Positions 1 through 1,334 are shown, numbered from the stretch's first letter. The stretch is 1,334 nt of DNA from Escherichia coli (GCF_003334815.1 NZ_QOWO01000100.1), one strand, 5' to 3'. Notes: a model not told the origin generated them from the sequence alone. Numbers and translations: made by a program.

Positions 1-804
1 AACCAGATGGACCCGGTGTACACGCCGGCGCGAAAAATCCACCTGTACCACTGCGACCATCGCGGCCTGCCGCTGGCGCTTGTCAGCACGGAAGGGGCAA
101 CAGAATGGTGCGCAGAATACGATGAATGGGGCAACCTGCTGAATGAAGAGAACCCGCATCAGCTGCAGCAGCTTATCCGCCTGCCGGGGCAGCAGTATGA
201 TGAGGAGTCCGGCCTGTATTACAACCGCCACCGCTATTATGACCCGCTGCAGGGGCGATATATCACTCAGGATCCGATTGGGCTGAAAGGGGGATGGAAT
301 TTTTATCAGTATCCGTTGAATCCGATCTCAAATATAGATCCATTAGGATTAGAAACACTAAAATGCATTAAGCCACTGCATTCAATGGGCGGAACTGGTG
401 AAAGAAGCGGTCCAGATATATGGGGGAATCCGTTCTATCATCAATATCTTTGTGTCCCAGATGGTAAAGGGGACTATACTTGTGGTGGCCAAGACCAACG
501 GGGAGAATCAAAAGGAGATGGTCTATGGGGGCCAGGTAAAGCAAGTAATGATACAAAAGAAGCTGCTGGCCGTTGTGACCTCGTTGAAACCGATAATAGT
601 TGTGTGGAGAACTGTTTAAAAGGGAAGTTTAAAGAGGTAAGGCCGCGTTATTCTGTATTGCCTGATATATTCACACCTATAAATTTAGGGCTATTTAAAA
701 ACTGCCAAGACTGGTCTAATGATTCTTTAGAAACATGTAAGATGAAGTGCTCCGGAAATAACATTGGACGTTTTATTAGATTTGTATTCACCGGAGTGAT
801 GTAA
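1..804 (+). CDS. rhsC: Rhs family protein, C-terminal portion (5'-partial; gene continues upstream of the window): conserved core tail plus variable C-terminal putative toxin domain
   Basis: The frame is open from nt 1 (AAC CAG precede the ATG at 7), so the ATG at 7 is an internal Met, not the start. The translation carries a terminal YD-type repeat ([22 protein letters not shown]) and the Rhs core-terminating motif [13 protein letters not shown] (DPLGL at nt 337-351). Downstream of it composition switches to AT-rich and the protein becomes a Cys/Gly-rich 150-aa tail ([14 protein letters not shown]...FVFTGVM). Stop codon TAA at 802-804. The symbol is recalled from E. coli K-12 RhsC element organisation and needs BLAST confirmation; the family call is firm. 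Confidence 0.88.
337..351 (+). other. DPxGL motif (DPLGL) marking the end of the Rhs conserved core and the boundary to the variable C-terminal domain; expected autoproteolytic release site
   Basis: Codons gat cca tta gga tta at 337-351, preceded by PLNPISNI. In characterised Rhs/YD-repeat proteins this PxxxxDPxGL element ends the core and an aspartyl-protease-like activity cleaves here. The GC-rich to AT-rich switch falls within about 20 nt of this motif. Confidence 0.8.
352..801 (+). other. Variable C-terminal domain of the Rhs protein (putative toxin domain, about 150 aa, 9 cysteines, function not identifiable from sequence)
   Basis: Everything after DPLGL to the stop. AT-rich, unlike the core. 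Residues [96 protein letters not shown]... I see no HNH, HExxH, deaminase HxE/CxxC or ART signature. Confidence 0.7.
793..796 (+). promoter_or_regulatory. Shine-Dalgarno-like GGAG for the downstream membrane-protein gene, lying inside the 3' end of the rhs CDS
   Basis: GGAG at 793-796, 7 nt upstream of the ATG at 804-806. Together with the stop/start overlap TAATG (802-806) this suggests translational coupling. Confidence 0.55.
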
Positions 805-1130
805 TGAAATATATTATTTTTTTATTCAGAGCTATATGGCTGGCTTTATCGCTTTTAATACTATTCTTTTCCATGCATAGACTTTCACTATTAGACTCCA
901 CTCGTGATGTGAGCGAGTTAATTAGTCTCATGTCTTATGGAATGATGGTAATATGTTTTCCAACAGGCATAGTATTCTTTATTGCTCTAATATTTATAGG
1001 GACTGTATCAGACATTATTGGCGTAAGGATTGATAGTAAGTATATTATGGCGATAATAATATGGCTTTATTTTCTGTCAGGAGGGTATATTCAATGGTTT
1101 GTATTAAGTAAGCGCATTATAAACAAATAA
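804..1130 (+). CDS. ybfB: Small polytopic inner-membrane protein (108 aa, about 3 predicted TM helices); putative cognate immunity protein for the upstream Rhs C-terminal domain
   Basis: Complete ORF from ATG 804 to TAA 1128-1130. The start overlaps the rhs stop by 1 nt (TAATG) and has a GGAG SD. It shares the AT-rich composition of the rhs C-terminal domain, so they look like one module. Three hydrophobic stretches: YIIFLFRAIWLALSLLILFFS, ISLMSYGMMVICFPTGIVFFIALIFIGTV and YIMAIIIWLYFLSGGYIQWFVL. The position immediately 3' of an Rhs toxin domain is the canonical immunity-gene slot. The symbol is recalled (K-12 ybfB is, to my memory, a 108-aa membrane protein downstream of rhsC) and unverified; the immunity role is inference. 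Confidence 0.72.
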   Translation: MKYIIFLFRAIWLALSLLILFFSMHRLSLLDSTRDVSELISLMSYGMMVICFPTGIVFFIALIFIGTVSDIIGVRIDSKYIMAIIIWLYFLSGGYIQWFVLSKRIINK

Positions 1131-1160
1131 ATTAAGTTAATTGCTCTTATTATTATATGT

Positions 1161-1334
1161 AACCTGGGCATTGATATCCCGTATGCCACAGACCCGGCAG
1201 GTAACCGCCTGCCCGACCCGGAGCTGCACCCGGACAGCACCCTCAGCATGTGGCCGGATAACCGTATCGCCCGTGACGCGCACTATCTTTACCGGTATGA
1301 CCGTCACGGCAGGCTGACAGAGAAAACCGACCTC
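1161..1334 (+). CDS. ybfO: Orphan Rhs core fragment (5'-truncated rhs coding sequence with no start codon of its own, continuing past the window end); probable start of a second, displaced rhs C-terminal/immunity module
   Basis: GC-rich sequence resumes abruptly near 1161 after the AT-rich module. Frame 3 is open from the stop at 1128-1130 to the window end and translates to ...[58 protein letters not shown], which contains a canonical YD-repeat (YxYDxxGRL). The first in-frame ATG is at 1248 with no convincing RBS. The symbol is recalled from the K-12 RhsC element and unverified. Confidence 0.75.

Follow-up and report, generated by a model that had tools for sequence, protein, structure and literature searches.

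In the stretch of Escherichia coli DNA analysed here (1,334 nt, referred to as the window), a small gene with a presumed immunity role is followed by the 5' end of an orphan Rhs fragment, and the two share a reading frame with only one stop codon between them. This arrangement raises the question of whether the orphan is ever translated, by ribosomes that pass the stop or by internal initiation. A first-pass annotation had pointed out the shared frame and had remarked that it may be coincidence. Our analysis makes it very probable that the junction is a frozen accident, created by one illegitimate join and spread by homologous recombination, and that the 5' end of the orphan is an untranslated part of a silent reserve. 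Neither the locus nor the biology of orphan Rhs modules is new.

Anatomy of the locus and its junction

The whole window matches E. coli strain G4/9 at 100% identity and K-12 at ~99%, and it is the known E. coli rhsC–ybfB–ybfO (rhsO) locus between ybfA and ybgA (Table 1). It differs from K-12 at 11 positions, 10 of which lie in the core before nt 133. The parts had been correctly named in the first-pass annotation as an immunity gene and then an orphan Rhs fragment, with the immunity role being presumed. The rhsC core has a GC content of 55-65% and is closed by the demarcation motif PxxxxDPxGL (nt 322-351). The GC content of the region that follows, encoding the C-terminal toxin domain (CT-C), is 32-53%. 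The rhsC stop and the ybfB start share one base in the sequence TAATG (802-806). This overlap, together with the GGAG located 7 nt before the ybfB ATG, marks the toxin gene and the presumed immunity gene as translationally coupled.

Table 1. Features of the 1,334-nt window
Feature	Position (nt)	Strand	Basis or remark
3' end of full-length rhsC core	1..351	+	100% match to G4/9 rhsC, 99% to K-12 rhsC
RhsC C-terminal toxin domain (CT-C), AT-rich	352..804	+	stop TAA 802-804
GGAG Shine-Dalgarno (SD) of ybfB, 7 nt 5' of ATG	793..796	+	read from sequence; duplex -6.1 kcal/mol
ybfB, 108 aa, hydrophobic	804..1130	+	annotated 'protein YbfB', WP_000873944.1 / b0702
ybfB stop TAA, next base A	1128..1130	+	sole stop of frame 3 across 804-1334
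Junction linker, AT-rich then weak core match	1131..1175	+	composition and alignment to rhs cores
Orphan Rhs core fragment, 5' end (RhsC codons 899-951)	1176..1334	+	K-12 pseudogene ybfO/rhsO; RHS_core HMM
First in-frame ATG	1248..1250	+	annotated start of K-12 pseudogene ybfO (b0703); without SD

Neither the CT-C tip (150 aa, Cys-rich) nor YbfB was assigned to a family in Pfam or NCBIfam. A collection of 5.8 billion proteins contained 42 relatives of YbfB, all of them from E. coli/Shigella or a few Salmonella. The position of ybfB, its coupling to rhsC and its co-occurrence with the CT-C tip in both E. coli and Salmonella are the basis on which we presume it to be the immunity gene for CT-C.

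From nt 1176, equivalent to rhsC nt 2695 in codon 899, the sequence is nearly identical to full-length rhs genes (rhsC and rhsA of K-12 and the genes of O157:H7, O55:H7 and E. albertii). Protein-level methods push the core match back to 1155-1161. Because nt 1161-1175 match the Rhs core weakly (9/15), the breakpoint is best placed somewhere within 1155-1176. No Rhs homology was found in nt 1131-1160 (ATTAAGTTAATTGCTCTTATTATTATATGT). The GC content is 25-27% over nt 1081-1170 and jumps to 65% from nt 1171; the linker is therefore compositionally part of the AT-rich tip/ybfB cassette and not of the core. The orphan fragment matches the NCBIfam RHS_core profile (E=7e-34, profile positions 906-964), and its tblastn match spans RhsC residues 893-1249. 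The orphan core is 97.5% identical to rhsC nt 2695-3729 at the nucleotide level.

Frame 3 runs on past the ybfB stop into the Rhs fragment, as had been noted before: nt 804-1334 comprise 177 codons with the ybfB TAA as the one stop. In the linker frame 3 is open and the other two frames are closed, and the closure of these two is unremarkable. In mononucleotide shuffles at the same composition, the chance that the linker is open in a given frame is 0.41 for a length of 30 nt and 0.27 for 45 nt, the two ends of the range considered. Multiplied by the 1/3 chance of being in frame, this gives a joint probability of about 0.09-0.14. The in-frame open junction is no more than chance would give, in support of the earlier remark on coincidence.

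Reading frame at independent junctions

Eleven junctions between an immunity gene and an orphan core were collected from E. coli, E. albertii and Salmonella (Table 2). They differ in immunity gene and in core breakpoint, the latter taken as the start of the tblastn HSP. Frame offset 0 was found at 3/11 independent junctions, close to the expected 1/3, and the ybfB junction is the only one that is also open (1/11, expected 10%), in what is a small sample of 11. The frame is random across immunity-to-orphan junctions. The most direct test of frame conservation is provided by the Salmonella homologue of the cassette itself, in which the toxin tip is 83% and YbfB 66% identical to the E. coli proteins. 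There a core fragment starting at codon 1185 follows the YbfB homologue after 122 nt, and it is out of frame. The first-pass annotation had proposed that a frame relationship lost among homologous loci would speak against its reading, and this loss is what the comparison shows.

Table 2. Immunity-to-orphan junctions with different immunity genes and core breakpoints
Junction (upstream gene→core codon)	Source	Frame offset	Remark
ybfB→893	E. coli	0	open, single stop
yibA→1091	E. coli	2	
ybbC→1153	E. coli	2	TAATG overlap
yibG→1178	E. coli	0	several more in-frame stops shortly downstream
DUF6258→1153	E. coli O55:H7 / E. albertii	2 / 0	2-nt indel; stops in both
NTF2→920	E. coli	2	degenerate fragment
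70-aa ORF→796	Salmonella contig	1	
DUF4279→1117	Salmonella contig	0	2 stops in gap
YbfB homologue→1185	Salmonella contig	2	3 stops in gap
341-aa ORF→1044	Salmonella contig	2	
152-aa ORF→1139	Salmonella contig	1	

The two versions of the DUF6258 junction lie at nt 13599-14200 of the O55:H7 region (L019) and nt 12371-13015 of the E. albertii region (L008). The latter came from a search of genome contigs with the orphan core protein, which returned six loci, this being the useful one. The other matches (L009-L013) are short contigs whose proteins are 88-100% identical to the E. coli Rhs core, and they are filed under Candidatus Nanosynbacter, Flavobacterium psychrophilum and Oscillospiraceae metagenome-assembled genomes and an isolate assembly of Terrisporobacter petrolearius. 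Such E. coli-like contigs in unrelated taxa most likely represent contamination or mis-binning of Enterobacteriaceae DNA.

A Salmonella enterica contig (AAINLG010000045.1, nt 1-9413) carries a long orphan array in which at least five Rhs core fragments follow one another, with differing tips and small ORFs behind them. The CT-C-like tip (83%) with the YbfB homologue (66%) is part of this array, and another CT-C-like tip (79%) is found at the contig end, at nt 8635-9222. At the K-12 rhsD locus, the first codon of the ylbH orphan behind ybbC is an ATG that shares a base with the immunity stop in TAATG (L006, nt 6946-6952), as is typical of translational coupling. By its sequence, ylbH would be a better candidate for translation from the 5' end than the orphan in the window. 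The ybbP/rhsD locus of three further strains contained no new orphans.

Translation signals at the 5' end of the orphan

The geometry at the junction could mean that some ribosomes decode the ybfB TAA as sense and produce a membrane-anchored YbfB–linker–Rhs(899-end)–toxin fusion. In favour of this, one stop and an open linker are all that separate the two in-frame ORFs, no stop interrupts the orphan frame before its toxin tip, and the interval from ybfB to the orphan has no terminator. However, only this bare geometry of two ORFs, one frame and one stop is shared with programmed stop-codon read-through. As described above, the configuration is expected by chance in ~10% of cases, the frame is kept neither at independent junctions nor in the Salmonella orthologue, and further stops are present at the other in-frame junctions. 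Of the stop codons in E. coli, TAA is recognised by both release factors, and it terminates most efficiently and with the least leakage. With an A as the next base, it is not in a leaky context here. The predicted RNA fold of nt 1100-1260 is no better than that of shuffled sequences (z=-0.49), which argues against a downstream stimulatory structure, and an Rfam scan of the junction gave no match. Among the 42 YbfB matches, 15 proteins were read, including variants longer than 108 aa, and no read-through fusion or stop-loss variant was found in this set. The chance that read-through explains the arrangement is close to negligible.

The long YbfB variants were considered as candidate stop-loss fusions and rejected. 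Their C- or N-terminal extensions are unrelated, and none continues into the IKLIALII... sequence encoded after the stop; they are consistent with insertions, alternative starts or chimeric contigs.

Internal initiation would have to use a start codon within the orphan, and no ATG, GTG or TTG is present in the orphan frame within nt 1131-1247, the 117 nt that follow the ybfB stop. Coupled toxin–immunity pairs look different. The start codon is found at the upstream stop in rhsC/ybfB (TAATG) and in rhsO/ybfC (ATGA), and the K-12 orphan junction ybbC→ylbH also has TAATG, whereas no start lies at or near the upstream stop at the ybfB→orphan junction.

The first in-frame ATG, at nt 1248, is the start of the old K-12 ybfO model of 477 aa (MG1655 region L007, nt 6221), and initiation there would yield an N-terminally truncated Rhs protein with the orphan toxin. 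The ORF from this ATG is intact, and leaderless or SD-less initiation does occur in E. coli. Several observations nevertheless speak against it. The first-pass annotation had described this ATG as having no obvious SD sequence, and the calculated pairing agrees: the 20 nt before it have an anti-SD pairing energy of -3.2 kcal/mol, at the background level of the window (mean -2.9 kcal/mol) and well short of the -6.1 kcal/mol of the ybfB GGAG. The surrounding region is GC-rich and predicted to be paired. The ATG is simply the internal Met923 of the Rhs core, aligned in the SMWPDN sequence of full-length proteins and common to related full-length genes. In strain 755 this codon reads GCA (Ala) and the following in-frame Met comes 93 codons later; in the full-length rhs gene of E. 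albertii the position is GCC. Current annotations of K-12 and PGAP treat the orphan as a pseudogene, in PGAP an 'RHS repeat-associated core domain-containing protein, missing N-terminus'. To our knowledge, an Rhs product missing the N-terminal two-thirds of the shell cannot encapsulate or deliver a toxin, and this is what the product would be. Initiation at this ATG is thus very unlikely.

A CTG at nt 1209 was also considered as an alternative start, with an AGGU 7 nt upstream that pairs at -7.0 kcal/mol and is the only SD-like site here. It was rejected: CTG is a very poor initiator codon, and a single predicted hairpin, GGCAGG-UAAC-CGCCUGCC, contains this codon as well as the AGGU.

In every uninterrupted copy the orphan frame is open over 511-528 codons, which would in principle allow a product. 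Since a scan between ybfB and the orphan found no terminator-like site, orphan RNA is probably present as a 3' extension of the ybfB-containing mRNA. Promoter-like hexamers within ybfB (nt 1018-1057) are not in excess, with 5 found and 3.4±2.0 expected in shuffled sequence. Literature searches for ybfO, rhsO and ybfB yielded nothing on their expression or translation, and these genes are not among the entries of an N-terminomics paper. From the signals at the junction, we infer that ribosomes end at the ybfB TAA in vivo and that the orphan 5' end is not a translation start.

Occasional passage of ybfB ribosomes beyond the TAA, or restarting after it, would give small amounts of the membrane-anchored YbfB–Rhs–toxin fusion or of a truncated orphan. 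This is extremely improbable. If it were true, the 'silent' orphan would have an intracellular toxin-antitoxin-like activity without recombination in about half of E. coli strains, and low-level read-through would connect to the way in which orphan toxins stay under selection; our results give no indication of this. The idea that the shared frame has a bearing on translation of the orphan is unsupported by start codons, SD sequences, RNA structure or fusion proteins, and the frame is not kept elsewhere. The in-frame arrangement is evidence neither of a fusion protein nor of a real ybfO start at ATG 1248. It is a frame coincidence with no detectable functional correlate, which matters little alone, in the ordinary and long-annotated K-12 pseudogene ybfO.

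Two minor observations concern the surrounding sequence. A genomic SELEX peak has been listed at old K-12 coordinate 732870, in the tables of the heat-shock and extracytoplasmic-stress sigma sections (PMC5493296), and we take the sigma factors to be RpoH and RpoE holoenzyme. After conversion between genome versions the peak corresponds to about nt 675 of the window, in rhsC ~130 nt 5' of ybfB, which hints at an internal promoter for rhsC-independent expression of ybfB that possibly reads into the orphan. Mechanical ORF calls, which are the extent of the support for these ORFs, also gave a 58-codon TTG-initiated ORF at nt 1141-1317 (+ strand, frame 1) that overlaps the orphan 5' end out of frame, and antisense ORFs at nt 1091-1249 and 1137-1307.

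Spread of the junction and routes to orphan expression

Of 5426 complete E. coli genomes, 2663 (about half) contain the segment from nt 1081 to 1230 at ≥80% coverage, and 24 of the 27 full-length matches sampled are 100% identical. In the seven loci compared base by base, the TAA and the linker are invariant (7/7), and the differences are confined to the core part from nt 1190 on. The identical CT-C/ybfB/linker/core-899 junction is found at three chromosomal rhs loci, followed by four different tip/immunity pairs. At the rhsC locus it precedes CT-O/ybfC in K-12 and, in the first of the two copies in G4/9, a duplicated CT-C/ybfB. At the rhsF locus near yiiX/metJ, it precedes a DUF4329-type tip and dsORF-f3 in strains AHB5, 755, B19695 and RS571. 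At the rhsA locus of strain A16, it precedes CT-B/yhhH. In K-12 the TAA, linker and orphan 5' end are identical to those of the window bar a substitution at nt 1319; the window is closer to G4/9, where the cassette and orphan start are tandemly duplicated. The rhsF-locus copies also carry an ISAs1 element that truncates CT-C just 5' of ybfB.

These comparisons show a single ancestral event as the origin of the junction, and the cassette of tip C, ybfB and linker evidently moves between rhs genes through homologous recombination in the flanking core homology. Because the junction is a single event that spread across loci, its conservation says nothing on selection for the frame: the invariance reflects common descent and recency. 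The occurrence of the junction at three loci with four tips is a clean natural illustration of a cassette moving and displacing resident tips.

In the frozen-accident explanation that we favour, an AT-rich, horizontally acquired cassette consisting of the RhsC toxin tip, ybfB and ~30 nt of 3' flank would have been joined once to core codon ~899 by illegitimate recombination, and the resident toxin tip would have been displaced downstream as a 5'-truncated orphan. By chance the join would have put the core in the frame of ybfB, and the short linker would by chance have been free of stops. Because Rhs core homology flanks it on both sides, the cassette could then spread between rhs loci and strains by homologous recombination, carrying the same junction along. 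Ribosomes would terminate at the ybfB TAA and the orphan 5' end would not be used as a start. The orphan would be a silent reserve that comes to be expressed once it is joined to a full-length rhs gene through homologous recombination; alternatively, low-level expression may possibly arise from internal signals near the toxin domain.

This explanation agrees well with published models. In the C-terminal displacement model, tips are exchanged between loci through recombination in the core (Jackson et al., 2009; PMC2935791). The 'dissociated C-terminal tips' of that study, core fragments with a variable tip that lie silent behind an intact rhs gene, are like the orphan here. The model contrasts a GC-rich core with AT-rich tips swapped between loci, and the ybfB junction fits it directly. 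Reading-frame relations are not discussed in that paper (the terms 'reading frame' and 'start codon' do not occur), and the random frame is what our survey adds. Orphan rhs-CT genes have been described as ones that 'usually lack translation initiation signals'; in Salmonella, an orphan toxin is deployed once the orphan has been fused by recombination to the main gene, with the locus probably being duplicated first (Koskiniemi et al., 2014; PMC3967940). The rhs-CT orphan/rhsI orphan of S. Typhimurium LT2 (STM0292) likewise consists of a 5'-truncated core, tip and immunity gene after a full-length rhs gene, lacks signals for initiation and export, and comes to expression once it has recombined with the main gene (PMC3967940). 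It belongs to another core lineage and has another junction.

The E. coli orphan has the properties of such a module. Its core is 5'-truncated and homologous to the adjacent full-length gene, the gene order is rhsC–ybfB–orphan in both G4/9 and K-12, and its sequence carries no initiation signals at the 5' end. Outside the window, K-12 rhsO has its own motif PVQYIDSMGL (a DS variant of the DPxGL motif), then the tip CT-O and then an immunity gene, ybfC, which overlaps as ATGA. The same tip also occurs on full-length rhs genes. In O157:H7, a full-length Rhs ends in PVQYIDSMGL and CT-O and is followed by ybfC, and CT-C/ybfB is absent; in strain 7636 (L014, nt 9307-14073), this gene lies at the same chromosomal locus as the K-12 orphan. 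The O157:H7 arrangement is either the ancestral state or a deletion-type recombinant. The ybfC gene of strain 7636 is annotated as frameshifted.

The reciprocal product is found in G4/9 (NZ_CP060073.1), in which the whole window occurs twice in identical form (L001, nt 7001-8334 and 8872-10205). The tandem duplication has the order rhsC–ybfB–[orphan 5' end/rhsC 3' core + CT-C]–ybfB–rhsO–ybfC, with a single core crossover between the window-equivalent positions 1176 and 1370. The orphan start in the window is, in G4/9, the start of this hybrid rhsO/rhsC orphan, which also bears a tip that is found on full-length rhs. G4/9 provides a naturally occurring case of the duplicated intermediate through which Salmonella orphans have been proposed to be activated. 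Both recombination products thus exist naturally for this E. coli locus. Because of the published work and these natural recombinants, recombination with a full-length rhs gene is the most likely route of expression.

'Silent' is not absolute for the Rhs orphan family. In S. Typhimurium, a promoter (P2) 89 nt 5' of the motif-coding sequence and a CTG start are present in both the main and the orphan rhs genes, and the orphan toxins are translated at a low but detectable intracellular level (Stårsta et al., 2020; PMC7043789). The E. coli orphan toxin could likewise be translated from internal signals far downstream, near the PxxxxDPxGL-coding region, in which case the frame at the 5' junction would be irrelevant. 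At the protein level, the corresponding region of E. coli is conserved. However, the -35 (TTGACG) and -10 (CATTACAAT) hexamers of the Salmonella P2 are not conserved in the E. coli core DNA (nt 180-250 of the window), and a promoter scan of the E. coli region found nothing. Translation from such signals is unlikely as the account of this orphan. As a route it is possible but unsupported for E. coli, and it would be compatible with the frozen-accident explanation of the junction; low-level translation of the E. coli orphan is possible.
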